Shown: piece after piece, positions 41,650 through 61,748 of the stretch | Layout of the letters: the number at the start of each line of letters is the position of its first letter | Position numbering within the stretch: position 1 is the first letter of the stretch | Source: Opitutales bacterium | Lineage (GTDB): Bacteria > Verrucomicrobiota > Verrucomicrobiia > Opitutales > PNEW01 | Direction: 5' to 3' | NCBI GenBank assembly: GCA_965197745.1 | Contig: CBDANS010000007.1 | Location: 352,001 to 416,000, forward strand | Length of the DNA: 64,000 nucleotides | The notes under the pieces: model-generated | What the model was told of the DNA's origin: nothing | Seen by the model: only the letters and a program-made list of their open reading frames with translations | Databases searched by the model: none | Program-made: the position numbers and the translations under genes

Positions 41650-43860
41650 GTGAATTTTACTAAGGCGCTAGCGTCCTTCCTCATTACTGTAAGTTTACCC
41701 TGTTCACTTCCTGCTGCTCCTCAAGATCTGGAAGTATTTTTAGATTTTGAAGATGCTGATGGAACAGGTGATTTTATACTCGGTGAACCGCCCAATGATA
41801 TCCGTTTTATCGGCTTCACCGTGGAAACATTGGAGGATCCCAATCTCCTGCATTCGGGGAATAAAGCATTAACCCTTGGGTCCGGTCAGGAAGGGAAAAT
41901 CTTCACAGAAAAAGGGATTCATCTGCTGGAATTCTATGTTGCCGAATCAACGGGCGCGGGCAAGATTGAGATCCGGGGTAGAGTCGATGAAGACAGACGG
42001 GAACTGGTTGACTTTCGCGAAGATTTTTATCTCTCAAATCCCAATGGGGTTGTAACCGGATTGCCTGCTAATATCAGTCCCGGTGCGAATCCTCCACTTC
42101 AAAGTTTCGTTGCCTTTAGTGGCAACTTCTTCGACGATACGGATCTCAATTTTGTCTACGGAATGAAAGAGATTAAGTTCGTAAATGTTACCGGAAAATT
42201 GTCGATCGATAATCTGGGTTATACCCTTGTCGATGGACCGACAAATAACACCGTTTACTCGGATTTTAACGAATTCATTGATAAGGAGACAGGTTTCGAT
42301 GATTTCACGGTTGGAGTATCACCATTTTCCGCGACCTTTACAAATGGCTTCGCGCCGTCCACCCCTAATTTTTTTGCGGCTAACGGCTGGTTAATTCAAA
42401 ATGGCGAAACCGGGACGATCACCTTCGAAACACCGGCAGCACGGGTTCAATTTTATGCTTCAACTATCGTGGAGACCGCGCAAGGGGAGAGTGACGCTAC
42501 GATACAGGCATTTGATACTGAAGATAATTTACTGACCATAATCGGGAACCTGGGTACAGATATCAGACCTGGAAATGGAGCTCCTCAGATTAAATTGATT
42601 GCCAGCGAATTGGGAGCTGAGAGCGGTATCGCTAAAATTACTTTAAGCGATAAAGTTGACGTAAATCCTACTTTCAGCCGGACACGACTTTCCGACTTCG
42701 GCTTTACCCCTATTCGCGCACCGGGTAGCGATGGTGGATCACCCCCTGCTGACGCTCCCTCTATCACTACCCAACCCACGAGCCAGGAAGTGCAGTCCGG
42801 AACAGCAGTCGTTTTAACGGTTGTCGCCAGCGGTGATGATCTTACATACCAGTGGTATACCGGCATCAGTGGTCACGACGACACTCCCATCGCCGATGCT
42901 ACCGGCAGCACCTTGAACACAGGCGCTCTCACTATGAGTAGCAATTTCTGGGTGCAGGTAAGTAATGCCGGAGGCAGTGCTGACAGCGACACCGCGGTTA
43001 TCACCGTAGCAGCTCCCTCCGTGCCTCTCGTCCTCGACGGTATGGGTGATATCGCGGGTGAGAATATACAGCATCCCAACGGCAATGTTTTCGACCAGAT
43101 TTTACTCACCGGTGAATCCATCCAACTCCAGGCCAGACCGGGACAAATTACAAGGGTCTCTTTCATGGACGAAACCGAAGACATTGTACAGGTAGAATTC
43201 TCTGGATCAGGGACCTTTACCGTAACCCTCGACCCGGCGACTTTCCTGCCACCCGGCACGCCCCCGCGCTACAACCAGTCCGTCGAGTACGTGACCGGCA
43301 AACCCAGCGTGGTCATCGACGGAGCGGACTCCAGTACCTTCTTCAGCATCTTCACCGTGGGAAGGATCAACGCGTTTAACCAGGCGCTGTTCCCCGAAGG
43401 ACAGGTCTATGACGCCCAGGCCGATGTGGCTCTCGTAGAAGTAGTCAACTCCACGGGACTCGGAGGAGTACAGTTATCGAATGCCGTATTCAGTGGAAGC
43501 ACGGGCAAGGTGGGCTTCGATGCGCGTGGCGTACCGATAGCGGTACGCTTGACCGTTGGCGACATTGACGCCGATGGCGATGCGGTACCACACCTGTTAT
43601 TTGGTTCAGGATCGTTCACTGTGCCGGCAGGCAATCCCGGTTTGCGGATCACAGGAGGAGATCTAGCCCAGACGAACGGAGCATCGATCGTCGTCGCAGA
43701 GAGTGGATCGACGACAACCGGGTTTGAAGAGACTTTTATTTCCCAGAACAACTTCAAGTCTGACAATACACCGCAACCGACACAGTCCGTAAATGCTACT
43801 TTTTCTAACGAAGATGGTGAGGAAATATCTGTCTCTGTGGATGAGGTGACGATAGAATGA
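41650..43860 (+). CDS. Secreted acidic multidomain protein: two tandem beta-sandwich repeats, an Ig-like domain and a ~270-aa C-terminal domain B
   Basis: Signal peptide; Ig motif PSITTQP...LTYQWY...VSNAGGS; C-terminus colinear with that of 59148-61748. Confidence 0.85.
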   Translation: MNFTKALASFLITVSLPCSLPAAPQDLEVFLDFEDADGTGDFILGEPPNDIRFIGFTVETLEDPNLLHSGNKALTLGSGQEGKIFTEKGIHLLEFYVAESTGAGKIEIRGRVDEDRRELVDFREDFYLSNPNGVVTGLPANISPGANPPLQSFVAFSGNFFDDTDLNFVYGMKEIKFVNVTGKLSIDNLGYTLVDGPTNNTVYSDFNEFIDKETGFDDFTVGVSPFSATFTNGFAPSTPNFFAANGWLIQNGETGTITFETPAARVQFYASTIVETAQGESDATIQAFDTEDNLLTIIGNLGTDIRPGNGAPQIKLIASELGAESGIAKITLSDKVDVNPTFSRTRLSDFGFTPIRAPGSDGGSPPADAPSITTQPTSQEVQSGTAVVLTVVASGDDLTYQWYTGISGHDDTPIADATGSTLNTGALTMSSNFWVQVSNAGGSADSDTAVITVAAPSVPLVLDGMGDIAGENIQHPNGNVFDQILLTGESIQLQARPGQITRVSFMDETEDIVQVEFSGSGTFTVTLDPATFLPPGTPPRYNQSVEYVTGKPSVVIDGADSSTFFSIFTVGRINAFNQALFPEGQVYDAQADVALVEVVNSTGLGGVQLSNAVFSGSTGKVGFDARGVPIAVRLTVGDIDADGDAVPHLLFGSGSFTVPAGNPGLRITGGDLAQTNGASIVVAESGSTTTGFEETFISQNNFKSDNTPQPTQSVNATFSNEDGEEISVSVDEVTIE

Positions 43861-45413
43861 ATTCCCAAATAAAAATATATGCAAAGTTAGCGCTCGCGTT
43901 ACTATTATTGCCCTCTTTTTCCCCGGGACAGGATTTTAATATAGATCTAGTAGCGACGGGCCTCACACTACCTGTTGCGATCACCCATGCCGGTGACGGC
44001 ACAAATCGACTCTTTATTAACCTTAAAGAAGGCCAAATCGTCATCTTTGACGGTAATAATATTTTACCTATACCCTTTCTTGACATTGAGTCGCTTGTCT
44101 CCAGTGACGCCTTTGAAAGAGGATTATTGAGCGCGGCTTTTCACCCTGATTACACAAACAACGGATTTTTCTATGTCAACTATACGGACATTAATGGTGA
44201 TACCGTGATTGCCCGATACAGTGTGTCGGGTAATCCGGACATTGCTGATCCGAATTCTGCTGCTATTATCACAACTATTGCTCAACCTGCCAGTACACAT
44301 AATGGTGGACAACTTCAATTTGGCCCTGATAGTTACCTTTACATTGGGATGGGTGATGGTGGTGGTGGCAACGGCGCTAACGCCCAGGATCTGAATTCGC
44401 TCTTAGGAAAGATGCTGCGCATTGATGTAGATAATGGGTTTCCCTACGCTATTCCTCCTGACAATCCCTTTGTGGGGGTTCCAGGCGCACAGGATGAGAT
44501 CTGGGCCTATGGTCTTCGCAATCCATGGCGTTTTAGTTTTGATCGCTTCACCGGAGACCTTTTTATCGCTGACGTCGGTGAGAATGATTGGGAAGAGGCG
44601 AATTTCCAGTCAGCGAGCAGCACCGGTGGCGAGAATTATGGATGGATTTTAATGGAGGGTACTCACTGCTTTATTCTTCCTACCAACTGCAATGATGGGA
44701 CATTGACGCTGCCCATTCTTGAGTATAACCACGCATTGGGTTGCTCGATTACGGGTGGCTACCGTTACCGGGGAGCTGAGATTTCCCAGCTGTTAGGGAC
44801 CTATCTTTACGCTGACTTCTGCTCCGGGCGAATCTGGGGAGCGACAGAGAGTAGTAGCAGCGTTTGGACGACGACAGAATTTATAGACAACGATTTTACG
44901 ATCAGTACTTTTGGCGAAGACGAATTTGGCGAGATTTATTTTGCTCAGTTCTCCCAAAATGGGTCCATCTATCGCCTGAGTTCTGATTCCCTGCCATGCC
45001 CTCCAGGTGATCCTCTATCCATCTGTTCTAACCAAGCAAACTTCACTACCGGAGAAACGCTGAGTGTCACCTTGAGAAGAGACAACCCGGGGTTCCCCTT
45101 GACCGTAGACTTTTACGCGGGGGTGATCTTACCGAATGGCGACACAACCATATCCTTCACCGGTCCAGGCAGTTCTTTCGGAAGTCTGTCCAATCCGATT
45201 ACCCTGATTCCTTTCCAAACGGGTGTAGATCTATCCACTCCTGTAGTTATCGATGATCCTAACTTCTTCCTTTATACCTGGACGGGTGGAGAACCTGCCG
45301 GCACTTATGTTCTCTATCTGGCTGCGGTCCTGGCCGGAGCTTTTGACGATGGCACCAATGATCCGGGAGATGTCCTTGAGCTGAGCACATTGCCTTTCGT
45401 CTTTACTCCCTGA
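43857..45413 (+). CDS. PQQ-dependent glucose/sorbosone dehydrogenase (GSDH) family protein with a C-terminal ~130-aa domain A
   Basis: ERGLLSAAFHP, HNGGQLQFGPD, GKMLRID, WAYGLRNPWRFSFD, ADVG, STFGED; ATGA overlap with the upstream gene. Confidence 0.92.
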   Translation: MNSQIKIYAKLALALLLLPSFSPGQDFNIDLVATGLTLPVAITHAGDGTNRLFINLKEGQIVIFDGNNILPIPFLDIESLVSSDAFERGLLSAAFHPDYTNNGFFYVNYTDINGDTVIARYSVSGNPDIADPNSAAIITTIAQPASTHNGGQLQFGPDSYLYIGMGDGGGGNGANAQDLNSLLGKMLRIDVDNGFPYAIPPDNPFVGVPGAQDEIWAYGLRNPWRFSFDRFTGDLFIADVGENDWEEANFQSASSTGGENYGWILMEGTHCFILPTNCNDGTLTLPILEYNHALGCSITGGYRYRGAEISQLLGTYLYADFCSGRIWGATESSSSVWTTTEFIDNDFTISTFGEDEFGEIYFAQFSQNGSIYRLSSDSLPCPPGDPLSICSNQANFTTGETLSVTLRRDNPGFPLTVDFYAGVILPNGDTTISFTGPGSSFGSLSNPITLIPFQTGVDLSTPVVIDDPNFFLYTWTGGEPAGTYVLYLAAVLAGAFDDGTNDPGDVLELSTLPFVFTP

Positions 45414-45669
45414 TCTCACTGTCAGATAGAATTCTGCTATTATTATCCCGGGTCAACGAATGGGCGTTTATAAATTGAGTTGGGTTTAGAGTGCTCGGAT
45501 CAGACGGAAGATGCTTCAGTATAGGGGTAAGCAAATACTCTTGATCCTCACAAGGCAAAGAACATGATGCCCTATCGACAAGTAGGTAGCGCTGACAACA
45601 AGACATTAGCATACCTGGAGGCTACCCATCCCAGGGGAATATTTTATCAGAGAAAAACGCATGGATTAA

Positions 45670-46827
45670 ATGAAGAGTAATTTACTAAAAAATTTTTTGC
45701 TGGCTGCTGCGTCCTTTTGTCTGACATTCCTGGTTTTAGAACTGTTTTTTTATTACGTGCTGGATCTAAAACCGCGAAGTTATAAACCTGAACGGATCTT
45801 TGAATTTTCTCTCCTTACGGGTCATTTTCATAAACCCAACGCGAGAGGTTACTGGTATCGATATCGTGGCGGAGGTAAATTCCATGTTTCAATCAACAGC
45901 TACGGATTTGCCGATGCCCCCAGGAAGCTTGAGAAGGACCGGCCAAGGATAGCATTAATTGGGGATTCTACCACCCAGTTTTGGGAAGCCAGGCTTGAGG
46001 ATAGAGGTCAGTTTGTGATTGAAGAATTACTTTCAAATACTTTTGAAGTATTAAATTTTGGGGTTCGTGGGTACGGGACTGACCAGACCTTTATCTTATT
46101 CGAAAATACCGGGATCAAATTCTCTCCCGATACTGTCATTTATACCTTTTGTGTGAACGACTTTACCGATAATCTCAGCAGAGAATCAAAACCGTTTTTT
46201 AGAGTGGATAGCACTGCTGACAAGCTGGTTGTGGACGGATACCCGATCGAGAGGCCGTTGAAGAATGATGATTCTGAACGTTTTTCTGTGAGGTCCCTGG
46301 ATGAATTTCTAAAACAAACGTCTTATATCTACCGAAGGTTAAGGCCTCTAATAAAGCATATGTCCGGCTATGTAGGTCCTTTGGAATCCTACGTCTTACT
46401 CGCACCTTTCAAAAGAACTTACAGTGATAAAGATAATGCAGGGGTCGAAATTACCTTAAGAATTATTTCGGAAATGAAAGAATATGTGGAATCCCAGGGC
46501 ATGAAGTTCATGATGGTCGAAGGTGTTTCCCGCCCCTCGGTTGATGAAAAGATGCAAAGCGAGGTAGTTGAAGTATTCGGCGATAATTTTGACTGGGATA
46601 AAGTGACGAATATCCTGGAGGAATATTCTACCGCCAATAACATTGAATTCCTATCACTCCCGCAATTAGCAAAAAGCAAGGGTATTCCCATTACAGAGAT
46701 AATGCACGACGAGGACTATTGGCATCTTGATAAAAATGGTATCCGTTTTTATGCGAAGCTCCTCGTAGATAAGCTTGACGCACTGGGTTGGTTGAACGAA
46801 ACCGAAGGTCCCGGTAACAGCCTGTAG
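45670..46827 (+). CDS. Membrane-anchored SGNH/GDSL hydrolase
   Basis: N-terminal TM; INSYGF, IGDSTT, NFGVRGYGTDQ, ND, D.WH...G. Confidence 0.88.
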   Translation: MKSNLLKNFLLAAASFCLTFLVLELFFYYVLDLKPRSYKPERIFEFSLLTGHFHKPNARGYWYRYRGGGKFHVSINSYGFADAPRKLEKDRPRIALIGDSTTQFWEARLEDRGQFVIEELLSNTFEVLNFGVRGYGTDQTFILFENTGIKFSPDTVIYTFCVNDFTDNLSRESKPFFRVDSTADKLVVDGYPIERPLKNDDSERFSVRSLDEFLKQTSYIYRRLRPLIKHMSGYVGPLESYVLLAPFKRTYSDKDNAGVEITLRIISEMKEYVESQGMKFMMVEGVSRPSVDEKMQSEVVEVFGDNFDWDKVTNILEEYSTANNIEFLSLPQLAKSKGIPITEIMHDEDYWHLDKNGIRFYAKLLVDKLDALGWLNETEGPGNSL

Positions 46828-46848
46828 TTGGGACTTAAATCCACTGTT

Positions 46849-48972
46849 TCAAGTCTCCTGGTAATTTACGTTCACATCGGGCTTGATCGTTTTGATCCCG
46901 GCTGAGGTGAGCTTTTCGCATTCCTGGATGTCTACACTCTTCAATGATGGAAATTTGTTTAAAGTGGACAAACCCGAGTCCGACAGATTTGAACAATTCC
47001 AGAATAATAATTCTTCGAGTGTCTTGATCTGGCTCAATAATTCTAAACTATGGTCTGTAATTTTGGTCCCCCAAATGTGATATACCTTGAGTTTTTTTGC
47101 GTTTACAAGGTGCTCGGATGCGCGATCCGTGGTGTTTTTACAATACATATTAACCAATAACTCGAGATTGGGAATCTGCGAAATAGAGGCAAATACCTCA
47201 TCGGTGAATGTATTTTCGTTCGCGGTCCAAAAATGTTGTAAAGCGGCAAATCCCGGTAACGATGCGAGGGACTCGTCGTTTAACTTTTTTCCTCCCAAGG
47301 CTAAGAATCTGAGATTGGGCAAAGTGCTTAAGGCCTTAACACCCACACCGGTTAAGTTGTTTACTGACCATGCGAATATTTTTTCAAGACCCAGGCATTG
47401 TCCCAGGGTGGAAAACCCATCGTCACCGGCAACTGCCTGGCCGCATTCCAGCGACTGCAATGCAGGAAATGTCGCCACCGTATTTAAGCTCTGGTCATCC
47501 ATGTCCCTCATACCCAATTCATGCAATTTTGGCAGCCCTGCCAATGCTCCTATACCTTGATTGATGCTGGGATTTACCTTAAAAAATTGGATCGCTTTCA
47601 AGCCATTCAAACCGCTCATCGCTTTTAAGCCCTCACCGGAAATATTCTTACTATCAAGGATAATATGGGAATCGGTAGGGTCTTTATACTCGTTAATTTT
47701 GAACCCCATGGGTGAGGCCAAAGGATTTTTAAGTCCGGGCAATTCGCAAATCAACGACAATCCGCGATCGGTAATTTTTTCAGGTAGATGGAGATGGGTC
47801 AGATACTCTTTATCTATCAGTAATTCAAGTCCCTGATCATCCATGGCCGTTCCCCCCAGGGTCAGAAGCGACAAACGGTCCAGCCCAACGGTGTGCCGCA
47901 AGGTATTGCTCGTTAATTGCGAACAGCCTTCAAGACGAAGGGATACCAGATGGGGCATCGCTCGAATAATCGCCAGTCCCTTGTCCGAAATATTCTGACA
48001 TCCGCTCAAAACCAAATATTTTAAAGCCGTAAGAGACTTAAGATGGGCGAGTCCTTCATCACTAATGTCAGGACAACGGGAAAGGTCCAAATACTCTAAA
48101 TGAGTCAAGCGGCTGATGTCGACTAGATGCTGGTCGTTAAATTCCCCCCCACCGGAAAGACCAGGAAACTTGTGTTGAGCAATCTCATCAACCAGCATTT
48201 CCCATACGTCTTTCTGGGGTTTGCTCCTCAATTCAACATACCACACGCGGCATTCGGGGACATTCACCGAGACCCGGTTCAAAGTCGTGACGCCCAACTT
48301 ATGTTCTCCTCCTCCTGACGGATCATTATCGCCATCTAACCCAATCCATCCTACAAGCAAGGGGAGGGTATTGCGTAATACTTGACGTTCAAATACCTTG
48401 TCCTCTTGCCCGCCATCTTTTTTCAAATTATCTTCAAACATTTTTAAAATACTTTCTTTTAATTGTTTTTTTGCCGTTCGTATTCTGTTTTTGATCGTTG
48501 AGATTGGTATTTCGAGAAATTCAGCCATTTCTTTTTGGCTGTTCCCACCCATAAAGAAAAGCATGACCGCTTCCCGTTCTTCGGTGCTCAGTTCGCGAAT
48601 TGCGCTGAGGAGAAATTTGAGTTCCGTTGTTCGCTCGATAGTCTCCGGAGGATTTCTCTCACTCGAAGTAAGATGGGGAAAACTGTCAATGGATTCGTAA
48701 TTGATGCGATTATCCTCCTGTATCAACCGGCGACAATGGGTGGAAATGATTCTGCGAAACCAGGCAGAAAATGCTGTTGGATTCTCAAGCTGTTTCAATT
48801 TTGCATAAGCATCTATAAAAGCCTTTTGTGCCGCATATTCGGCGAGATGGAGTTCACCAAGCAGCGAATAGGCATACCCAATAGCCATACTCCGATACCT
48901 TCTGACGATTTCGGCAAATCCGTTATGGTCACCGGATTGTGCCAATTGAACTATGTCAGTGATGTCTTTCAT
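46849..48972 (-). CDS. ECF sigma factor fused to a C-terminal leucine-rich-repeat domain
   Basis: Sigma2 (FAEIVRRY...F.AWFRRI) and sigma4 (LS.EEREAV.L...SQKEMAEFLEIPISTIKNRI), then many LxxLxLxxCxxI(S/T)DxGL repeats; no TM segment. Confidence 0.9.
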   Translation of the reverse strand: MKDITDIVQLAQSGDHNGFAEIVRRYRSMAIGYAYSLLGELHLAEYAAQKAFIDAYAKLKQLENPTAFSAWFRRIISTHCRRLIQEDNRINYESIDSFPHLTSSERNPPETIERTTELKFLLSAIRELSTEEREAVMLFFMGGNSQKEMAEFLEIPISTIKNRIRTAKKQLKESILKMFEDNLKKDGGQEDKVFERQVLRNTLPLLVGWIGLDGDNDPSGGGEHKLGVTTLNRVSVNVPECRVWYVELRSKPQKDVWEMLVDEIAQHKFPGLSGGGEFNDQHLVDISRLTHLEYLDLSRCPDISDEGLAHLKSLTALKYLVLSGCQNISDKGLAIIRAMPHLVSLRLEGCSQLTSNTLRHTVGLDRLSLLTLGGTAMDDQGLELLIDKEYLTHLHLPEKITDRGLSLICELPGLKNPLASPMGFKINEYKDPTDSHIILDSKNISGEGLKAMSGLNGLKAIQFFKVNPSINQGIGALAGLPKLHELGMRDMDDQSLNTVATFPALQSLECGQAVAGDDGFSTLGQCLGLEKIFAWSVNNLTGVGVKALSTLPNLRFLALGGKKLNDESLASLPGFAALQHFWTANENTFTDEVFASISQIPNLELLVNMYCKNTTDRASEHLVNAKKLKVYHIWGTKITDHSLELLSQIKTLEELLFWNCSNLSDSGLSTLNKFPSLKSVDIQECEKLTSAGIKTIKPDVNVNYQET

Positions 48973-49131
48973 CCTAATACATTAGGTGCGTTATAAGAAT
49001 GGAGCTTGATCTTTCAATAAAGTGTACGTTTATACGAAATAAAATACTTTTAGACTAGATCTTCCACAACCCTACCTGTTAATTGAAAGATAGTTTAATT
49101 GGTGGAAGACAATAGGGCCACTCCTTGAATT

Positions 49132-49159
49132 TTGACATTCATATTTAAATCGGTATCAT
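49132..49159 (+). promoter_or_regulatory. Sigma-70-like promoter
   Basis: TTGACA-N16-TATCAT upstream of the DUF5916-like gene. Confidence 0.4.
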
Positions 49160-49218
49160 CTCGAAAGCATGTCAACAGGCAGAAAAGGGGATCATGCTGT
49201 GAATAAGCCTAACGCGCA

Positions 49219-51447
49219 TTGCCAGGAATGATCCCTTTTGCCTCCTTTACTTTTTGCTTCCGAGTAATCGTCCTCTTATGCCTCTTACTGGCTTTAAGGG
49301 GTCCTGTCTTTTCGGAAGATTCCGCGAGCGATCAAAATGGAGTCCACCCGATTGAAGAAAACCAATTGGGGGAAGGTGATTACAGGGTCACTATGATTCG
49401 CACCGAGACCCCTCCGACCATCGATGGGTATGTTGATGAAGCGAGCTGGGCCACTGCACCGGTCATTTCCAATTTTACCCAGGTTCAACCCGATGAAGGT
49501 TCACCCCCAAGCGAAAAGACAGAAGTCCTGCTCCTTTACAGCTCAGATTATATCTATGTGGGTATTCGCGCCTTCGATTCAGAGCCGGATGAAATAACAG
49601 CCCGGATAATGCAAAGGGATGGTTCGATGCGCTATGAAGACTCGGTGCGTATGACCTTCGATACTTTCCATGATTTCCGTAATGCTTATTATTTTGAAAT
49701 TAACGCATTGGGCGCTTTGAGAGACGCGCTTATCCGGTCCGGCAAATTTCCTAACTATAATTGGGACGGTATCTGGGATGGCAAGGCGGTCATGGACGAA
49801 AACGGTTGGTCCGCAGAACTGGTCATTCCGACAAAAACACTTTCCTTCGATCCCCGGGGAAAAAACTGGGGGTTCAATGTCGAAAGGTCCATCCAGCGCA
49901 AAAGAGAGCGGGTCCGCTGGTCGGCCCCCTATCGCAACAACTCGATTAATGAGTTGGGAAGCTCAGGGGTCTTGACCGATATCACGGGTCTGCAACAAGG
50001 CCTGGGTCTGGACTTTGTGCCATACGCGAACATGAAAGCCACGCGCGACCAGGTTTTGAACGACAGTTCATTCGAGTTCAAACCGGGATTCGACCTATTT
50101 TATAAATTCACCCCGGCGATTACCGCAGCGCTGACCGTGAATACTGATTTTGCCGAGGCCGAAGTAGACGACCGCCGCGTTAACCTGTCCCGATTTGAAC
50201 TCTTTTTTCCGGAAAAACGGAAATTTTTTCTTCAGGATGCCGAGATATTCAGATTTGCCGGTCTCAGTCGTTCACCGGTCCCTTTTTTCTCGCGGCGCAT
50301 TGGTCTGGATGCCGATAACCAGCCGATTGATATCCGCGGGGGGATTAAAGTGACGGGAAGGATGCGCCGGGTAAATTTTGGTATTCTCGATGTTCAGGTC
50401 GATGACACCAGCAGCATTGAATCAAAAAACCTGGCCGTGGCCCGTGCCACCGTAAACGTTCTAAAGGAATCACAAGTGGGAGTTATATATACCAATGGCG
50501 ATCCCCAAACCAATGATGACAACAGCCTGATCGGCGCGGACTTTACTTATCGGACCTCAAAATTATTGGGCGCTAATGATGTATTTGAGACCAATTTCTT
50601 TATTCAAAAATCTTCAACCACGGGATTTACAGATAATCAAGGTTCGATCGGTGGATCCGTGCGGTATCCGAATGACAAATTCGCAATGTGGTTATTTGTC
50701 GAGATGATGGACGAAAACTACAAACCCGCGCTGGGCTTTGTCAATGAGTCTGGAGTGAGGGATTATGATTTATTTTCCCGCTACCGCATACGGCCCGAAA
50801 AATTCGACAGTATCGATTTCAAAATTGACGCGCACTACCGCACCACCATCGATGGTGAAGTGGTGAGGTCCCGTTTTAACTTTCCAGATTTTAGAATTAC
50901 GAATAAAGCCAAAGATTATATTGACGTGAGCGGGCAATTTCACCGGGAACAGCTTTTTGAGCCATTCGAGATTGTTGATGGAGTCATCATCCCCGTCGGA
51001 GATTATAAATTCCGAAATGCCGAGATCAGAGTCAGGACCGCCAGGGAGAGGGCGTTGAGCGGGAATTTTACCCTGGGGGTGGGCGAATTTTATGACGGCG
51101 ATAGGTTGGAGCTCAGAAGCGAGATTGTCTGGAAACCATCCCCTTTATTCAACACCGAGTTTCTCTATGAGTATAACAATGTGGATTTACCGGTTGGAGA
51201 TTTTGATACCCATGTCGCACAGTTAAACCTGAATTTTAATTTTTCTCCAAAATTATTTTGGAACATCACTAATCAATATGACAATGTTTCCGACAGTTTT
51301 GGTATAAACAGCCGCATACGCTGGAATGTAAAGCCGGGCAATGACATTTACCTGGTTTTTAACCAGGAAGTAGATACTTTCGACGGGCGCTGGCAACCCA
51401 GCAAGAGACAACTCAATACAAAAATTAACTGGACCCTTCGATTTTAA
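49219..51447 (+). CDS. CBM9-like domain + DUF5916-like outer-membrane beta-barrel protein
   Basis: PTIDG..DE..W, FDTFHD, GWSAELVIP..TLSF, TVNTDFAEAEVD, FPEKRKFF, FFSRRIGL; terminal ...WTLRF. Confidence 0.87.
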   Translation: MPGMIPFASFTFCFRVIVLLCLLLALRGPVFSEDSASDQNGVHPIEENQLGEGDYRVTMIRTETPPTIDGYVDEASWATAPVISNFTQVQPDEGSPPSEKTEVLLLYSSDYIYVGIRAFDSEPDEITARIMQRDGSMRYEDSVRMTFDTFHDFRNAYYFEINALGALRDALIRSGKFPNYNWDGIWDGKAVMDENGWSAELVIPTKTLSFDPRGKNWGFNVERSIQRKRERVRWSAPYRNNSINELGSSGVLTDITGLQQGLGLDFVPYANMKATRDQVLNDSSFEFKPGFDLFYKFTPAITAALTVNTDFAEAEVDDRRVNLSRFELFFPEKRKFFLQDAEIFRFAGLSRSPVPFFSRRIGLDADNQPIDIRGGIKVTGRMRRVNFGILDVQVDDTSSIESKNLAVARATVNVLKESQVGVIYTNGDPQTNDDNSLIGADFTYRTSKLLGANDVFETNFFIQKSSTTGFTDNQGSIGGSVRYPNDKFAMWLFVEMMDENYKPALGFVNESGVRDYDLFSRYRIRPEKFDSIDFKIDAHYRTTIDGEVVRSRFNFPDFRITNKAKDYIDVSGQFHREQLFEPFEIVDGVIIPVGDYKFRNAEIRVRTARERALSGNFTLGVGEFYDGDRLELRSEIVWKPSPLFNTEFLYEYNNVDLPVGDFDTHVAQLNLNFNFSPKLFWNITNQYDNVSDSFGINSRIRWNVKPGNDIYLVFNQEVDTFDGRWQPSKRQLNTKINWTLRF

Positions 51448-51475
51448 ACCGGACCGCTTTTTACCTTCTGACTAA

Positions 51476-52222
51476 TTATCTCCTGGACCGGAGCTTGGCC
51501 AGCAGTCTGAGAATTTCGATATAGAGCCAGATGAGCGTTACCATTAAACCGAAGGCGGCATACCATTCCATGTACTTAGGCGCTCCCTGCGATGCCCCGT
51601 TTTCGATAAAATCGAAGTCCAGGACCAGGTTCATTGCGGCGACGACAACGACAAAGAGACTGAACCCGATGCCTATTAATCCACTGTCATGAATAAAGGG
51701 TATCCCGATGCCAACAAACCTGAGAATAAATGATAAAAAATATATTAAGGCGATTCCTCCCGTCGCGGCGACAACGCCAAGCTTGAAATTCTCTGTAACT
51801 TTAATGAGCCCTGACTTGTAGGCGGCCAGAAGGCCGAAAAGGGTACACATAGTTAATCCAATCGCCTGCACGACAATCCCCGGAAATTGCGCTTCAAAAA
51901 CGGCCGAAATACCGCCCACAAAAAACCCTTCAAGAACGGAATAGATCGGAGCGGTAAGAGGTGCCCATTGTTTTTTAAACACGGTGATGAGGGCTACAAT
52001 AAACCCTCCGATGGCTCCACCAATCATCCAGGGCAGCACTACCGCAGGGGTCCCAGTTGAATAAAACTGGTTCCATATCCAGACGGCGGGTAGGGTGAGA
52101 AAAAATAACATTAGCAATGTCTTATTGACCGTGCCCTGAATCGTCATCACTTGGTCACCGAGGGACTCTGATCCAATTCTATCGAAAGTTTTTGCGTTTA
52201 AAGCGGGATTCGCTGTTCTCAT
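51476..52222 (-). CDS. Bax inhibitor-1/YccA-like membrane protein
   Basis: MRTANPAL, MTIQGTVNKT, LVLDFDFIE, APKYMEWYAAFGL.VTLIWLYIEILRLL. Confidence 0.92.
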   Translation of the reverse strand: MRTANPALNAKTFDRIGSESLGDQVMTIQGTVNKTLLMLFFLTLPAVWIWNQFYSTGTPAVVLPWMIGGAIGGFIVALITVFKKQWAPLTAPIYSVLEGFFVGGISAVFEAQFPGIVVQAIGLTMCTLFGLLAAYKSGLIKVTENFKLGVVAATGGIALIYFLSFILRFVGIGIPFIHDSGLIGIGFSLFVVVVAAMNLVLDFDFIENGASQGAPKYMEWYAAFGLMVTLIWLYIEILRLLAKLRSRR

Positions 52223-52255
52223 TTTTTCAATCCTGGGTATGACATTATAACGGTT

Positions 52256-54091: not shown

Positions 54092-54314
54092 ATATTCTTT
54101 AATGCCTGGTGGGGAGGGAAATAGACAGGTTAATTTTCGATCTGCTTCGGGTCAGTAATCCCCGGGGATGTAGGAGCAAAGCAAATCAATTAAATTTACA
54201 TGGCCAACTTCTACTTCCGGAGAATGAAAATGCAATAAGGTAAATATGATTGTCGCTAATCTTTTAATTTACCCGGCTGGCCCTTTTTCGGGGGCACATT
54301 ATCAATGACCGTGA

Positions 54315-54680
54315 TTATATGAGCAATGAATTAACAGCGGTTGTTAATTCCTCTAATGAGAATGGTTTCACGATCGAACAGTCTGCGCCCAAACCTTTGG
54401 CTGCCTCCAGGTACCTTTCAGGCCCCAGGAGTCCGCCCCCTGAGATGGCAATGATTTTCACTTCAGGGTTCTGCTTTTTAGCATGAATCATTACTTCGAA
54501 ACCATTCATGTCCTCCATTATAATATCTGTAATAATAAGATCAGGTTTTAATTCCTGGAGAATGTTCTTCGCTTCAAGACCACCCGGAGCTACGAACACT
54601 TTATGCTGTTCTTCTTCTAACGCGTACAACAATAAAGAACGGTAACTCTCATCATCTTCAACAATAAGAATGGTATTCAT
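54315..54680 (-). CDS. Single-domain CheY-like response regulator
   Basis: ILIVEDD, LIITDIIM, ISGGG, KPF; paralogue of 21867-22235. Confidence 0.92.
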   Translation of the reverse strand: MNTILIVEDDESYRSLLLYALEEEQHKVFVAPGGLEAKNILQELKPDLIITDIIMEDMNGFEVMIHAKKQNPEVKIIAISGGGLLGPERYLEAAKGLGADCSIVKPFSLEELTTAVNSLLI

Positions 54681-54747
54681 AAGGCGGGTTGAAGTTCAGC
54701 AATTTATTAAATCGAATACTTGATAATGACGTGACAGAGTGGTCGGG

Positions 54748-55705
54748 TTACACAAACTGGTCCACCGGGAGAGTTAGTCTGGAGAGGTTAATGTTGAAGT
54801 TAAGTTGGTAGAGGAAGTCAAGGCTTGGGCGCAATGAGGGCGTAGCCCGAATGGAGCCCGAGCCTTCGGTATTGAGGTTTTCAGTGAAGTGCCGTGGAGT
54901 GATGTTGCCGAGGCTGCGGTGGGGTCGGACATGATTGTAAAGCCAGCGCCAATCTTCGATGACCACGCGGGCTTCGGTCAAAGTCCATAACTGTTCACGG
55001 TTTAAACACTCCTCGCGAAAACGGGCATGGAACGATTCAATGTATCCGTTCTGCCAAGGGCTTGCTGGTTCGATATAGAGGGTTTTGATTTTCATCGCAG
55101 TTAGCCAGGCTCTCAATTGGCTTTCAATAAACTCGGAACCGTTGTCGCTACGAATATATTTTGGCGGCCCATGCCGGTCGAGCAGTTTTTGCATGATACC
55201 GCGCACCGTTTCCGCATTGATATGGCGATCAACATGGATCACCCGGCACTCGCGGGTGTACTCATCGAGCACGGTCAGCATTTTTAGACTGCCGCCGCGA
55301 ACCGTCTTATCGTGGATAAAATCCCAGGTCCAAACATGGTCGGGATGTTCGGCCTTTGTCGGTAGCCCGGTGCAGACACCCCTGCGCCGGCGTCTTGGCT
55401 TGCGTGGGGGGATCGCCAGACCCAGTTCACGTCGCAGACCTTGCACGAGACGTTTACCCACCTGCCAGCCTTCGTCCTTCAACAGCTTCGTGATCTTGGG
55501 ATAGCCCCACCTCGCGTATTGCCGTGATAACCGCCTTACTGCCGCTTTTAGTTTCGTTAGCCAGGCATCCGGATGCTTGGCCCTATACGCATAGGTGGAA
55601 CGGTGCAGCCGAAAGTACCGGCACCCCGCTCGCATCGAACACTGGCCCCGAGTCACAAGTCTCTCTGCCACTTGCCGCTTGTGCCCAGGGCTTACAGTTT
55701 TTTTT
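54748..55705 (-). CDS. IS3 transposase OrfB (DDE integrase core), reached by a -1 frameshift
   Basis: WTWDF, LDEYTRE, IRSDNGSEF, PWQNGYIESF, YNHVRPH; slippery GAA-AAA-AAA-CTG at 55698-55705. Confidence 0.93.
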
Positions 55706-55958
55706 CGAGGGTCTCCTGCAGGATCTCTATCCCCAGCATCTTGTCCGCCAGCATCCGTTTTAACCGCGCGTTCTCCTTCTCGAGCTCCTTCATCCGCTTG
55801 GCCTGGTTGACATCAATCATCCCAAACTCACGTTTCCAGCGGTGGAAGGTCTGTTCGCTTATGTTGTTCTCGCGGCATGCTTCCAGGATCGTTTTCCCTT
55901 TGTCCGCCTGGCGCAGCATCCGTATTTTCTCTTCGGTCGTGTATCTTTTGCCTTTCAT
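55692..55958 (-). CDS. IS3 transposase OrfA (HTH)
   Basis: KRYTTEEKIRML...CRE.NISEQTFHRWKR...LEKENARLKRMLA. Confidence 0.95.
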   Translation of the reverse strand: MKGKRYTTEEKIRMLRQADKGKTILEACRENNISEQTFHRWKREFGMIDVNQAKRMKELEKENARLKRMLADKMLGIEILQETLEKKL

Positions 55959-56533
55959 TGTCTGTGTCCTTTCTAGTTGGACCAGACTAACTTTTCAAGT
56001 GGACCAGTTTTCGTGGTCACGACCAAGAGTTACCCAATAGTTCGAAGGATAATTCCAAATAATTTTTCGTAGACGAGGTAAATGAGGTTTCCTTTTTGAA
56101 TTCGGGTTTGTAAGTAACTGAATTTATTGACCTGGCATACTGTCTCAAGAAACTGTCCATGACCTTGCTCCAATATCGTTAGTAGCTCTAATAATTTCAA
56201 TCTATTCCCAAGCAAAAATTTTCTAATAGTAATAATATCAGTAACTTATAAAGCATAAACCGAACCAAACTTGTAAATCATAGGCGAATTACCTTACTTA
56301 GTTAGTTATTATACATATTTACTATATTTGTGTGTAAAATTATACAGACTTTGCCTCTGGAATCAAATTCAGAGGGATTTTAAACAAACATATAAGGTGC
56401 ATACTTCATAATATAATAATTAATATTTATTATGAAAGAATCCATGGGATAGCCCGAACTATTTTATTGGCTAAAGACGATGACACCATATGACATAAGT
56501 TGAGAGTCAGTGTTTGAAGAACAGAATTAAATC

Positions 56534-57528
56534 ATGCCTAAACGTATCATTATCTGCTGTGACGGCACCTGGAATACTCCTGAACCAAAATACGTAACAA
56601 ACGTTACAAAAATTGCCCGTGCCATTGAGCCTACAGACGAAATAGGAAATGAACAGGTTGTTTTTTATGACTGGGGTGTCGGCACCGAAAATAAAATTGA
56701 CGCAATGAGGGGGGGTGCGTTTGGCAAGGGAATCGATAAAAATATACAGGATGCGTATAGATTTCTTGTTCACAATTACTCACCCCGAGATGAACTTTTC
56801 TTCATCGGATTCAGCAGAGGCGCCTATACGGTCAGAAGTGTGATCGGAATGATACGGAACTGTTGGATTTTAAAAAAGTCTAACGCGGCCTTAATACCCA
56901 AAGCCTATGCCATATACCGATCGCGTTCTGGTCCGGATGATAAAGCAGCGCAGAAATTTCGATTAAAATATGCGAGGAAAGCCAATATACATTTTTTAGG
57001 AGTTTGGGACACCGTCGGTGCGTTAGGAATTCCTCTTGGACTCTTTCGTAAATCAAACGAAAAAAAATACGGTTTTCATGATACCGTAATCAGTCGCATT
57101 GTTAAAAATGCTTATCATGCATTGGCCATTGATGAAAAAAGGAAGCCCTTTACTCCGACCATCTGGAAAACAAAAATAAGGCGGAAAAATACAGAACAGG
57201 TATGGTTTGCCGGTGTGCATAGTGACATCGGCGGCGGCTATAAAGAAGCGGGGTTATCTTTTCACACCCTGAAATGGATGCTTGGTAAAGCCGGGCAGTG
57301 CGATCTCTCGATAAAAAATTCGTATATTAATTCTATTCTTAGAGAGAGATCGCCGGATAAATTACATAATTCTTTTTCAATACTGTATAAATTTTTGGGG
57401 CCATACATCAGAAAATAGGGATCACAAATAATGATGAATCGCTGCATCCTTCGGTTCTCAAACGGTATCGCAGCAACAAAAACTACAGGTCAGCCAACTT
57501 GAGAAATTATATTAATTCCCATTCATAG
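56534..57528 (+). CDS. DUF2235 (Tle1-like) alpha/beta hydrolase; apparent 1-bp frameshift at ~57412-57415
   Basis: IIICCDGTWN, TNV, GVGT, GFSRGAYTVRS, GVWDTVG, HALAIDE, VWFAGVHSDIGGG. The -1 frame continues IGITNNDESLHPSVLKRY...YRSANL, the usual family tail. Confidence 0.87.
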
Positions 57529-57541
57529 TATTGCAAGCGAC

Positions 57542-57619
57542 ACCGAACCCCTCGAGTCCACGGAGCACCGTCGCTCCCGCCAGACCATGCTCCCGCGCCT
57601 TTTTAACAATCCACTCGAA
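57542..57619 (-). pseudogene. DUF190 (PII-like) gene fragment
   Basis: FEWIVKKAREHGLAGATVLRGLEGFG is the DUF190 signature; the flanking sequence is unrelated. Confidence 0.75.
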
Positions 57620-57719
57620 ATGTGGCAGCCAGGTGATTACGAATAAATTTAAATGGTGTTGCAATAATGACGAGTGACCAGGGGGTAAATCCTTCCCTCC
57701 CATTAAATAAATCTTACAG

Positions 57720-58895
57720 CTATTCTTTCGAAGGGAATAAAAAAACCCCTTGGATGCCGCAGATCTTTTTGGCTTCGTATTGGGGATGATTCCTCGGTAC
57801 TACCTGTTCCCCTTTATCGGTGCTGAATGCCATGAATGATTTTCCGTCGAGATTGACGGAACTGGAGTAGCCGCCGTCAGTATCGTAATCCTGGATTATC
57901 TGACGCGGTGACCAGGTCATGCCCTGATCCAACGAAGTGTGCATGATCATGTCCTGGGCGGGGGTAAATCTTCCGTGCAGGACCAGGGTCTTGCCAACCC
58001 AGTGAAGGACGGGGCAGCGGACCGATATTTCCTCGACAAGCCGTACAGGTCCCCAGCTCTTTCCATCGTCAATACTCACCCGTGTATAATTCCTCTCTTC
58101 CCCGTCGGGCATGTAAGCCAGGGCCAGAACATAAATGCTGCCATCGGGGAGAAAAGTAATGGTTGGATACCGCATTACCGCGGTATATACATCGGGTTCC
58201 CATTCTCTTGGAGCGATTGGTGAAGGAAAAACAGCGCTGCGCCTTTGCCATGTCTCACCATTATCTTCACTGGTGTGTAATAATACACCCGCATAAAAGC
58301 TGGGTGAGACGAAATAGAGGGTCCCGTTGCGGGTGAGGATATTAGAAGTGGATCCTTCGATGTAATGGGGATGTTCCGGATCGACGTAGCCCTTGTATAC
58401 ATAGGTCTTACCATGATCGTCACTGATGAGGTAAACACACCCTGCAAACTGTTCTCCCCCCAGCACCAGGTTTTTAGCTTCAGCTTCGAGGATTAGCTCC
58501 GGGTTTGTGGTTTGAACCAATAGCACCAGTTTCCCGTCCGGTGTTCGCGCAAAGGTAGATCCATAAGCGCTTTCGCCAAGATGTCTTTCACTATGTTCGT
58601 AGATAACGCCTTCATATTTCCATGAGGCACCGCCATCCGTGCTGCGCGCTTGCACAATATTTCCTACACCATGCACGCGTCCCTGGCCGCTTGCGACCAG
58701 GAGATCTCCGTTAGCGGCTACGATCGTTGTCGGCCCATGAAAATAAGTATCAGGATTACCGAAGGTGTGTGGAATTATATCAAAGGGGGTACCGACTATT
58801 GGTGTGGCCGCAATAAATTGCAGTTTCAGGCCCCCCATAAAAACAAATAAGGTGAGGCCCATAAAAGCGACGAATAATAAGCGTTTTTTATTCAT
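57720..58895 (-). CDS. BNR/Asp-box (sialidase-like) secreted protein
   Basis: STDGGASW, SDDHGKTY, SEDNGETW, SIDDGKSW, SLDQGMTW, DGGYSS. Confidence 0.85.
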   Translation of the reverse strand: MNKKRLLFVAFMGLTLFVFMGGLKLQFIAATPIVGTPFDIIPHTFGNPDTYFHGPTTIVAANGDLLVASGQGRVHGVGNIVQARSTDGGASWKYEGVIYEHSERHLGESAYGSTFARTPDGKLVLLVQTTNPELILEAEAKNLVLGGEQFAGCVYLISDDHGKTYVYKGYVDPEHPHYIEGSTSNILTRNGTLYFVSPSFYAGVLLHTSEDNGETWQRRSAVFPSPIAPREWEPDVYTAVMRYPTITFLPDGSIYVLALAYMPDGEERNYTRVSIDDGKSWGPVRLVEEISVRCPVLHWVGKTLVLHGRFTPAQDMIMHTSLDQGMTWSPRQIIQDYDTDGGYSSSVNLDGKSFMAFSTDKGEQVVPRNHPQYEAKKICGIQGVFLFPSKE

Positions 58896-58986
58896 GACTT
58901 AGAAAAGTTTGCTACGACCATACCTCTCGTTTGAGTAGTAATAAGCCAGGTAATATACGAGCTTACATATAGCGTATAATTATGAA

Positions 58987-59041
58987 GTCAGTCCAATCTT
59001 TTTAATGATATATATTAAATATCAAGGAAGATTGGACTGAC
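58987..59041. repeat. REP-like hairpin with 14-bp perfect arms
   Basis: GTCAGTCCAATCTT-N27-AAGATTGGACTGAC; degenerate relative at 63758-63812. Confidence 0.7.
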
Positions 59042-59147
59042 CCCTTACCTGTATTTCAACAGGTATTATGTCCCAGAGGGATGGAACTGTTATTTTTTAC
59101 AATGACAATTGCTGTTCTCGATCACCTGTATCGGGTGACTCATAAAT

Positions 59148-61748
59148 TTAATCAATCGTCATTTCTTCCACATGGACTGCAATTTCCCGACCATCCGCGT
59201 GTGAGAAGGTTGCATTGATGCTTTGGGTCGGTTGATAAATTCCCTCCGAATTCACATTGTTCTGCGAAATCAATGTCTCAAACCCCGGGGTGATCGATCC
59301 ACTACGCGCGATCACGATTGAAGATCCATTGCTTTGAATAAGATCGCCCCCGGCTATCGGCAGCCCTGGATTGGCCGCATTGACCGTGAAGGAACCCTCA
59401 CCAAAAAGAAGGACCGGAACCGAACTGCCGTTGGCGTCAATGTCACCTATCAAGACACGAACTGACACCGGTATACCAGGAGCCTTTAATCCCACTTCTC
59501 CATCCAAATCACTAAAGCGGGCGTTCGCACAAAGGATTCCTCCAAAACCTGTGGAATTAGTGATCTCCAGCAAGGATACATCCGCCATTCCGTCATACAC
59601 TTCGCTTTCCCGGAATAACGACTGGTTCACTGCATTAATCGGCCCCACGGTGAAGATGCTCATGAAAGTGTTTTCGTCAGCTTCTTCGACCTTAATGCTG
59701 GCACGACCTTTAACATAATTCACCGATGGTTGATTATATTTTACCGGGGTTGCAGCCGCTTCGAAGGTGTCCGGGTCCAGGGAAATTGTCACTACCGCAT
59801 TACCGGAAAATTCCACCTGCACAATGTCATCGTTTAAGTCTAAGAAAGAGACACGTGTGATCTCCTCCTCATCGGACTGCAATCTTACGCTTTGCCCGGT
59901 GAGCAAGACCTGGTTATAGACATTGCCGTTGGCGTGGGTAATGTTCTCACCAACCGTCTCACCACTGCCTTCAACGACGAGATCAACCAAGCGCACTTCA
60001 TCATCAGCGAGATCTTCGATTATCACTTCAACCCTTTCATGGTCCAGTATGATTCCTGAGAGGGGGTCTATTGCAGCGCTGTTGGTTTCTTCTATAATGC
60101 CTTCTTCGAAGGCATCTCTAATGTCGCTTAAACCCGTTTCAAAGTCATATATATGAGAGGAATCGAGTCCATCAGCAGTGGCGAACAGGTCATTAGCAGT
60201 GGCCCCTGTAAATGTGGACGATACCGTATCTATTACGAGGATATCTCCCGGATCCATGGTGCCATCGGCAAATGCTTCCGGATAAACTACAGCTACGCTA
60301 AATTCGTATTCGCCTGGAAGTTCATTTCCCGACCAGGTGTGCTGAAAAAATTCGGGATCATCCAAGGTAAAAGGCGTTGATAGATTGACGCTACTTTCGA
60401 AAGGTATGAGTGTTCGCGTATCGTACAAACTACCTAAAGTCATTCCTGAATCGGTAACTGAATAGACTGTCTCACGATCAGGCAAGGTGATCCAGGCGTA
60501 AAAGTTGACGGTCACCGGATATCCCTGGTTAAATCTCCTCAAAGAGAGATTTAAGGTTTCCCATGGACTGAATCTGTCCTGGTTCAAGTTAATGGAAATA
60601 GGATCGTTAGCTTCACTGTCTTCAGATGTGTCCGAATTGATGGGATCAATTACAATGTCAGCTGCTTCAATCGCATTGTCAGAGATCACAATATCGTCCA
60701 CGTATAAGGTCGCCGCTTCATCGCCGTAACTGTGTGCGGTTATACCGATCTCTAAATAATTGTATATCGTTTCATCCAGAAGAAGGGTTTGGCCCAGGGT
60801 ATCTATAATTTTTTCTCCGTCTTGCCAGACCTCAATTATGCCGTCGTCGTCGTCGGATAGCGTCAGATGGATTTCGATGTGCACCCATTCACCGGTGGGA
60901 AACACCACTTCTTGCCCTTTGGGTTGATAATATTTCTTTTTCGACACCCATTTTAATTCCATCAATAATTCACCTTCGGGAGGGAGCATGAGTCTTATCC
61001 CCGGTCTTTGTTCATACCAGGTTGTCTCAAGATCCCATAAAGTGAATGGGATACCCCCTTCGGCAATATAGTACCATCCGGAAAACCATACGTCATCACC
61101 CCTGACATAATGGAACATTTCTGACCCAAGGAATGCCTTGGCTGTAACCATCTCATCCGACTTCGGCACGCTATAAGCTTTTAACGCGCTACTTCCCGTA
61201 TGGACATTTTCTGAACTCGGTTCTATCCGGTTATCGAGGAAATCAGATTCCCCCCGTAAGATCAGTTTCCTCAGTGAGACATAGTCTGGGACTGTAGGCG
61301 TCAAGGGGGATTGCACCACGAAATCCGTCCACCCCTGTTCTATGTTTACAAGGTCCCGGATAGTGTAAACGTTTTCATAGTCTTCCTCAAAATACCTTTT
61401 AACTTCAAATTTCTGTTGTCCGGTATAGGGATCCTTTCTATATATTTTGTTTTCAATTTCAGTGTAGTTTTTTTGATAATAGTCATTGTCATAAAGTTCG
61501 TATATATATGACAGGGTGTTGCTATTATCATCCACCTTGTAAACATCGCCTTCGATTATTATGAAGTCGATGCCCTGAATGTTAATACTGTATTCACTTA
61601 AGTATTGATCAGAGAGTGGTCGGTCTTGTGATCCTTGAGAAAAGGATGAATACAAGAAGACAGCCATCCCAAGTAATATCAGCCTTATGGAATTGCCCGT
61701 CCCTTGTAATCGTAGTTTGTAGTAATTATCAGTAACATTTGTTTTCAT
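59148..61748 (-). CDS. Secreted multidomain protein: polysaccharide-lyase-like/LamG jelly-roll + domain A + C-terminal domain B
   Basis: Signal-like N-terminus; GDDVWFSGWYY...PTGEWVHIEIH..LS...DGIIEVWQDG...LYVDDIVIS; the two downstream modules are shared with 43857-45413 and 41650-43860. Confidence 0.8.
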   Translation of the reverse strand: MKTNVTDNYYKLRLQGTGNSIRLILLGMAVFLYSSFSQGSQDRPLSDQYLSEYSINIQGIDFIIIEGDVYKVDDNSNTLSYIYELYDNDYYQKNYTEIENKIYRKDPYTGQQKFEVKRYFEEDYENVYTIRDLVNIEQGWTDFVVQSPLTPTVPDYVSLRKLILRGESDFLDNRIEPSSENVHTGSSALKAYSVPKSDEMVTAKAFLGSEMFHYVRGDDVWFSGWYYIAEGGIPFTLWDLETTWYEQRPGIRLMLPPEGELLMELKWVSKKKYYQPKGQEVVFPTGEWVHIEIHLTLSDDDDGIIEVWQDGEKIIDTLGQTLLLDETIYNYLEIGITAHSYGDEAATLYVDDIVISDNAIEAADIVIDPINSDTSEDSEANDPISINLNQDRFSPWETLNLSLRRFNQGYPVTVNFYAWITLPDRETVYSVTDSGMTLGSLYDTRTLIPFESSVNLSTPFTLDDPEFFQHTWSGNELPGEYEFSVAVVYPEAFADGTMDPGDILVIDTVSSTFTGATANDLFATADGLDSSHIYDFETGLSDIRDAFEEGIIEETNSAAIDPLSGIILDHERVEVIIEDLADDEVRLVDLVVEGSGETVGENITHANGNVYNQVLLTGQSVRLQSDEEEITRVSFLDLNDDIVQVEFSGNAVVTISLDPDTFEAAATPVKYNQPSVNYVKGRASIKVEEADENTFMSIFTVGPINAVNQSLFRESEVYDGMADVSLLEITNSTGFGGILCANARFSDLDGEVGLKAPGIPVSVRVLIGDIDANGSSVPVLLFGEGSFTVNAANPGLPIAGGDLIQSNGSSIVIARSGSITPGFETLISQNNVNSEGIYQPTQSINATFSHADGREIAVHVEEMTID

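Follow-up and report, generated by a model that had tools for sequence, protein, structure and literature searches.

What does it mean when two protein domains of no named family lie on neighbouring genes at one place of a genome and on a single polypeptide at another? The question is raised by a 64,000-nucleotide stretch of DNA (the window, whose positions are used below) from an Opitutales bacterium of the Verrucomicrobiota (assembly GCA_965197745.1, contig CBDANS010000007.1, positions 352,001 to 416,000), in which two modules, called here A and B, recur on three exported proteins. The initial annotation read this pattern as a Rosetta stone, according to which A and B work together, B anchoring or exporting the proteins and A docking enzymes. 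The answer favored here, with a probability of about 0.6, is that A and B are independent accessory modules of exported proteins and not partners, and that B is a constant C-terminal module which would hold its cargo at a common site of the envelope. As judged from sequence, B is a real, highly expanded and undescribed C-terminal module for which a role as surface anchor is plausible. The genes and modules of the window are the following.

41650..43860, + strand: 736-aa exported protein with signal peptide, variable head of ~340 aa without Pfam match, Ig_7 and module B (open reading frame translation, Pfam, BLASTP)
42757..43008, + strand: immunoglobulin (Ig)-like spacer Ig_7 (PF19081), residues 370-453, directly before B (Pfam E 3.2e-8, 34.2 bits, cut-off 27.3 bits)
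43021..43857, + strand: module B, residues 458-736 of the 736-aa protein, reaching the stop codon; predicted all-beta (BLASTP, predicted model)
43857..45413, + strand: 518-aa exported glucose/sorbosone dehydrogenase (GSDH, PF07995, residues 37-373) with C-terminal module A (Pfam)
44979..45407, + strand: module A, residues 375-517 of the GSDH protein; predicted Ig-like beta-sandwich (BLASTP, predicted model)
59148..61748, - strand: 866-aa exported protein with Polysacc_lyase (PF14099, residues 173-353), A, acidic linker and B (Pfam, BLASTP)
60207..60635, - strand: copy of module A, residues 372-514 of the 866-aa protein, internal (BLASTP)
59151..59987, - strand: copy of module B, residues 588-866 of the 866-aa protein, divergent subtype (BLASTP)

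The three reading frames and both shared modules are present as the initial annotation had claimed. By BLASTP, the B of the 736-aa protein is 59% identical to that of the 866-aa protein over 280 residues (E 7e-104), and the A of the GSDH protein is 48% identical to that of the 866-aa protein over 143 residues (E 2e-36), both far beyond chance. The payloads are indeed unrelated: a head without Pfam match followed by Ig_7, a GSDH domain that aligns with all but the first of the 332 profile positions of PF07995 (2-332; E 6e-40, 138 bits) and a Polysacc_lyase domain. Pfam and BLASTP also confirm the order catalytic-A-B on the 866-aa protein, with a 73-residue acidic linker between the two modules; A and the linker together occupy the position held by the Ig_7 spacer in most B proteins. 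This is the only fusion of A and B found among the 150 best A carriers and the 100 B frames of this genome. The start of the GSDH gene overlaps the stop codon of the gene before it through an ATGA (...GAATGAATTCC), as the initial annotation had reported. The three N-termini, all of which had been described as signal peptides, are Sec-like when judged by eye; in the 866-aa protein a long stretch of 20 residues precedes the hydrophobic segment of the putative signal peptide. The statement that neither module can be assigned to a named family also holds, since the scan of the three window proteins returned no family for A or B at E up to 1 in Pfam-A or NCBIfam. No paper on a family like B in Opitutales or Verrucomicrobia appears in the literature listings or in the opening lines of the abstracts.

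Copy number, constraint and distribution of module B

Module B has about 100 matches in the 4.45-Mb source genome, by tblastn and by genome search alike. In a census of reading frames, 93 of 3966 (~2%) carry B, which is near-complete in 83. The position of the module is nearly constant: B ends at most 15 residues from the stop codon in 79 of these 83 frames, and the remaining four carry 33-150 further residues after it. A start resembling a signal peptide is present, by a crude rule, in at least 57 of the 83 frames, most of the others being truncated or frameshifted. The head of the 736-aa protein is common to 47 of the 83 (over at least 300 residues), which makes the window gene one of ~47 paralogues. 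Its head is only 38-58% identical to those of 47 other full-length paralogues, against an identity of ~87% for B. Pfam analysis of 19 frames with divergent B identified trypsin-like domains with PPC/CARDB (four frames), FG-GAP_2, RCC1 with Ig, cyclophilin, Flg_new_2 and one Ig_7 behind a GSDH remnant; nine had no Pfam match at all.

The uniformity of B goes together with deep divergence at synonymous sites. In 300 random pairs from 45 frames of 700-800 aa, the proportions of synonymous and nonsynonymous differences in B (pS and pN) were 0.59 and 0.074, with a ratio of nonsynonymous to synonymous rates (dN/dS) of 0.064. In the heads of the same pairs pN was 0.36 and pS was saturated; a few of the 45 frames bear other heads, which inflates the figure for head divergence. 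Recent gene conversion as the cause of the uniformity is ruled out, as the synonymous sites differ at 59%. The GC content at third codon positions, as a mean over the 45 frames, is 0.62-0.64 in the Ig spacer and B against 0.41 in the head (compare positions 42757-43857 and 41720-42744 of the window).

B was found only in three Opitutales lineages, as far as sequence comparison reaches. It is present in all three other genomes of the same family, two of which are complete and gave 85-104 first-look candidates, in one of 37 genomes from other families of the order and in all three genomes of one further genus. The profile search found it in none of the 397 other sampled genomes of the phylum. 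The C-terminal position is kept in these lineages: 0-43 residues follow the match at 13 of 16 loci checked, 164 and 266 residues follow it at two others, and at the last the match runs off the contig.

The genes within three positions of the 93 B frames belong mostly to uptake and catabolic families, namely NANM-SSF symporter fusions (13), SBP_bac_5 (11), PhyH and sulfatases, together with IS3 elements (30). This setting among sugar-uptake and catabolic genes fits a display of the variable heads near transporters. No recurrent transport, secretion or processing gene was found in the same neighborhoods, which hold only IS3 elements, the families just named and pieces of disrupted paralogues; at least nine head fragments adjoin B frames in the genome, such as those of a frameshift-split paralogue of the 736-aa protein. 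The genome has three secretin matches. Two further genes of the window belong to families met in these neighborhoods. On the - strand, 36333-38912 encodes a fusion of an N-acetylneuraminate-epimerase-like Kelch propeller (PF24996) with a sodium:solute symporter (PF00474), and such fusions form a family of at least 13 members that recurs within three genes of B genes (for example, at G000:C4:10149-12743). Also on the - strand, 54751-55671 encodes an IS3-type transposase (rve, HTH_21), one of a kind represented by 30 IS3-related frames within three genes of B genes.

A constant C-terminal domain on many exported proteins is the usual mark of a shared sorting or anchoring route. B could be an export signal for a dedicated outer-membrane translocation system resembling the type IX secretion system (T9SS), and might be removed after passage. 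Its extreme C-terminal position in 79 of 83 frames, its occurrence on unrelated Sec-dependent payloads and its lineage-restricted, all-or-none distribution with dozens of copies would all suit such a signal. The C-terminal domains (CTD) of the T9SS in Bacteroidota (Por_Secre_tail and CHU_C) are organized in the same manner: dozens of Sec-exported proteins with unrelated payloads end in a single conserved module, often after an Ig-like spacer, and Pfam labels the Ig_7 family seen here 'CHU_C associated'. However, neither Por_Secre_tail nor CHU_C was matched by the three window proteins (at E up to 1) or by 19 further B carriers, and the phylum differs. The T9SS CTD have roughly 70-100 residues; B, with ~280 residues, exceeds the known C-terminal export signals about threefold in length. 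Its conservation between paralogues (dN/dS 0.064) goes beyond the need of a mere recognition tag, four copies carry 33-150 residues after B, and a recurrent transport or processing gene was not found within three genes of the 93 frames. A search for SprA (PF14349) gave no match in the source genome, and none in the 14 control genomes either. An export signal is considered unlikely, and an anchor is preferred because B is large, nearly frozen between paralogues and without a recurrent transport gene nearby.

Fold of module B and its likeness to known systems

The model of B, built from a 24-sequence alignment, is all-beta with a predicted local distance difference test (pLDDT) score of 94.4 and a predicted template modelling (pTM) score of 0.92. 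In neither PDB nor the viral models of BFVD did Foldseek find a match to it at E <= 0.001, and the B profile retrieved nothing meaningful from the sequences of PDB chains. The best VIA-align match has a Z of 6.5, with a root-mean-square deviation (rmsd) of 4.3 Å over 166 residues, and many right-handed beta-helix proteins follow at Z 5-6.5, a range that VIA-align itself rates as a common arrangement. Sequence neighbors are equally silent on function: 900 proteins passed the homologue search, of which the best 120, at 86-100% identity, are all named 'hypothetical protein', and the ESM Atlas gave only 'hypothetical protein' clusters, with scores of at most 0.90, both for B and for the 736-aa protein's head. 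Five acidic or polar residues are invariant in the 24-sequence alignment (D52, D56, D133, Q219 and N221).

Right-handed beta-helix lyases, hydrolases, tailspikes and adhesins dominate the VIA-align list. In pectate lyase-like proteins, tailspikes and autotransporter passengers the alignment covers 160-190 residues, which is most of the model. These observations raise the possibility that B acts on a substrate, as a large beta-helix-like module that binds or cleaves one abundant marine glycan. The invariant residues and the location of B genes among sugar uptake and catabolic genes would agree with such a function. On the other hand, the structural likeness stays at the level of a common arrangement (rmsd 4-5 Å), Foldseek and the PDB sequences add nothing to it, and payloads such as a trypsin-like peptidase or a cyclophilin are ill-suited to glycan targeting. 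The variable heads are also the more natural binding modules. A substrate role of B is consequently regarded as quite improbable.

Other surface systems resemble B in logic. SLH and CWB2 anchors also exist as dozens of paralogues, and a constant module of this kind could tether exported proteins with variable parts to a polymer of the envelope. Unlike them, B has no sequence match to these families, forms a single all-beta domain of 280 residues instead of three short repeats and belongs to a diderm host of the Verrucomicrobiota. The cohesin-dockerin system likewise equips many enzymes of one genome with a small constant module, but no dockerin or cohesin Pfam match was found in the three window proteins, A and B do not co-occur across genomes and no scaffold of repeated A was seen. 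The translocator of autotransporters (type V secretion system) differs in that no Autotransporter Pfam match was obtained and in that B ends in ...VTIE, without the aromatic terminus. An outer-membrane beta-barrel was rejected for B, as the model is not listed near barrels and its C-terminus is acidic rather than aromatic. B may be likened in logic to the T9SS CTD, the SLH/CWB2 anchors and the dockerins; it shares with them neither sequence nor a clear fold and is not a member of these families.

Module A and its relation to module B

Module A occurs four times in the source genome. Two copies are those of the window; a third, at C7:454008-455021, is 87% identical to the GSDH copy and is attached to an unrelated head, and a fourth, at C6:1231212-1232402, is 36% identical. 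The C7 gene seems, from its sequence, to be split into two frames (G000:C7:454008-455584, - strand), one of 165 aa with a signal peptide and one of 337 aa ending in A, neither of which has a Pfam match.

The predicted model of A (pLDDT 94.7) is an Ig-like beta-sandwich. The best VIA-align match is the FnIII-type domain of RbmA (Z 9.5, rmsd 2.6 Å, 102 residues), 15 chains reach Z >= 8, and Foldseek gave five matches at E <= 0.001. Among the structures that resemble A are the macroglobulin (MG) domains of alpha-2-macroglobulin and complement (Z 8.5-8.8) and the Ig-like domain of dextranase (Z 8.4-8.6), and the top Foldseek matches are Ig-like sandwiches such as NPC2/ML, RbmA and CARDB. A differs from RbmA, MG and the other Ig-like domains in that the identity is only 10-16%, no Pfam match exists and A has motifs of its own, with the conserved residues N36, G38, D44, P52, W101 and Y110. 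Neither in the window proteins nor in 70 further carriers does a Pfam family extend over A, and PDB sequences gave the A profile no match with E below 0.1. As far as the model goes, A is a new sequence family inside the common Ig-like fold.

A is widespread outside the host phylum. Its profile matched 733 clusters at E <= 0.001, and 371 at E <= 1e-10, among 1.84 billion representative proteins, and relatives are found in metagenome-assembled genomes of Methylomirabilota, a Thermoplasmata archaeon, Acidobacteriota and Desulfobacteraceae. Within the sample of the phylum, three of 401 genomes have matches, including the source genome; the other two are marginal (E 2e-4 and 9e-4). The position of A is mixed: in the best 150 carriers it is C-terminal in 75, N-terminal in 35 and internal in four, and 36 are proteins of at most 230 aa. 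The payloads, from the Pfam scan of 70 of these 150 carriers, comprise S8 subtilases, FG-GAP, BNR, beta-helix, GSDH, CAP and GH114.

The joint occurrence of A and B is rare in both directions. A was not found in any of the seven other B-bearing genomes (G001, G002, G003, G028, G143, G223 and G258). Of these, G001, G002, G003 and G028 were searched by single sequence and by a 4-sequence profile, and G001, G002, G143, G223 and G258 by a 33-sequence profile that finds, as a control, all four copies of the source genome. Conversely, B is present in one of the best 150 A carriers, which is the 866-aa protein of the window, and A in one of 100 B frames of the source genome. As B is fused to almost everything in this genome, one fusion with an A-bearing protein says little.

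Related payloads are found with exchanged modules. The GSDH orthologue of G002, 74% identical, has the architecture GSDH-Ig-B and diverges from the GSDH-A of the window right after the shared '...IYRL'; the source genome also carries a GSDH-Ig-B remnant. The G002 gene (locus L089 1408-3600) has lost the B frame ~60 residues before the usual end and adjoins an IS3 transposase, and may be decaying. A metagenomic FG-GAP_2-A protein is 51% identical to the FG-GAP_2-B protein of the source genome, and in G001 the homologue of the A protein from C6 has another Ig-like domain at its end. For the lyase head of the 866-aa protein, no homologue was found in G001, G002, G003 or G028 by a search that had no positive control.

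Several observations weigh against the independence of the two modules and against the anchoring function of B. In the source genome one of the four A copies is fused to B, and two more directly follow a B gene of like orientation, which makes three of four. Given a base rate of 49 in 3873 frames (1.3%) for such a placement, its occurrence in two of three unfused A genes has a naive binomial P of ~5e-4, a value that rests on three genes and ignores the clustering of secreted-protein genes. The ATGA overlap of the 41650/43857 pair suggests co-translation, and the presence of a GSDH without its own B behind a B gene fits a compensation by docking. Concerning B itself, no partner or dedicated machinery was identified in the neighborhood of the 93 B frames and the structural matches, with Z not above 6.5, are generic; we infer the role of anchor from the position, copy number and constraint of the module.

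The placement of the A genes and the ATGA overlap speak for a docking of A on B, or on a B-bearing protein, in the style of cohesin and dockerin, by which the A-bearing enzymes of this genus would be displayed through B-anchored partners. The sister GSDH orthologue has its own B, and an A beside a B gene could replace a B that was lost. Nevertheless, A was not found in the seven other B-bearing genomes, with the positive control in the source genome, B accompanies just one of the best A carriers, and the relatives of A belong to distant phyla where B was not seen. A is present once per protein, with no repeated scaffold. No B gene adjoins the third unfused A gene (C7:454008-455021), and in the second adjacent pair the B gene upstream of the C6 A gene is frameshifted: this paralogue of the 736-aa protein (G000:C6:1232613-1234905, - strand) is split into frames of 357 aa and 431 aa. 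Prediction of an A and B complex gave 0.00, 0.43 and 0.00 in three runs, against a mark of 0.32, and speaks neither for nor against binding. Docking of A on B is judged very unlikely.

The comparative data thus speak against the Rosetta-stone claim that A and B work together: A was not found in seven of seven other B genomes, B is present in a single one of the 150 best A carriers, and the two modules swap on related payloads. As far as the sequences tell, a partnership of A and B is not supported, and the source genus remains the place where it could hold. The initial annotation had also named what would speak against its proposal: no A/B co-occurrence was seen in the other genomes and the positions of A are mixed, but neither module belongs to a characterised family. 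Its suggestion that B anchors or exports was a reasonable one, since B is a common C-terminal module on many unrelated exported proteins; the function itself is one that we infer.

Proposed role of the modules and significance

The most likely role of B is that of a common module for surface attachment or assembly. The B-bearing proteins would cross the inner membrane by Sec and pass the outer membrane by a general route, for which secretin genes are present. Subsequently, B would hold them at one shared site; candidates are a conserved glycan of the envelope, a receptor protein common to all of them, or a layer formed by self-assembly. Many binding and catalytic heads would thereby be displayed beside the sugar-uptake systems of the cell, the heads varying (lectin-like proteins, peptidases, dehydrogenase, lyase, prolyl isomerase and repeat proteins) and B remaining almost unchanged. 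A, in turn, is a widespread module with a predicted Ig-like sandwich fold, carried elsewhere by many payloads without B; in the source genome it fills positions that sister genomes give to other Ig-like domains or to Ig-B. Domain shuffling among genes of secreted proteins would then best account for the one fusion of A with B and for the ATGA-coupled pair.

Less probable still than simple docking, and clearly speculative, is a reading in which B is the attachment module of an undescribed, Opitutales-specific display system with ~80 cargo proteins per cell and A has been recruited in this genus as a non-covalent adaptor. If true, an enzyme that lacks a B of its own, like the ATGA-coupled GSDH, would ride on a B-bearing neighbor, a two-component display comparable to the cellulosome in Verrucomicrobiota.

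Other genes of the window deserve mention. On the + strand, 56534-57415 encodes a Tle1-like phospholipase domain of the type VI secretion system (PF09994, E 1.9e-85). It adjoins, on the - strand, the gene of a BNR-repeat protein with a weak match to the Tli3 immunity protein (57723-58895, E 5.7e-6), and the sequences suggest that the two may be an effector-immunity pair. At 46852-48972, on the - strand, a 707-aa protein combines sigma-70 regions 2 and 4 of the extracytoplasmic function (ECF) type with leucine-rich repeats, an unusual fusion.

Verrucomicrobiota are important degraders of marine polysaccharides. To our knowledge, little has been established on how they retain enzymes and binding proteins on the cell surface. 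A docking pair of A and B would be the more striking outcome, but the comparative data speak against it. The present genome devotes ~2% of its reading frames (93 of 3966) to proteins with one domain that is recognised by no family or structure library and has hardly changed although synonymous sites have diverged deeply. Should B turn out to be an anchor, it would offer a direct handle on surface retention in the Verrucomicrobiota.

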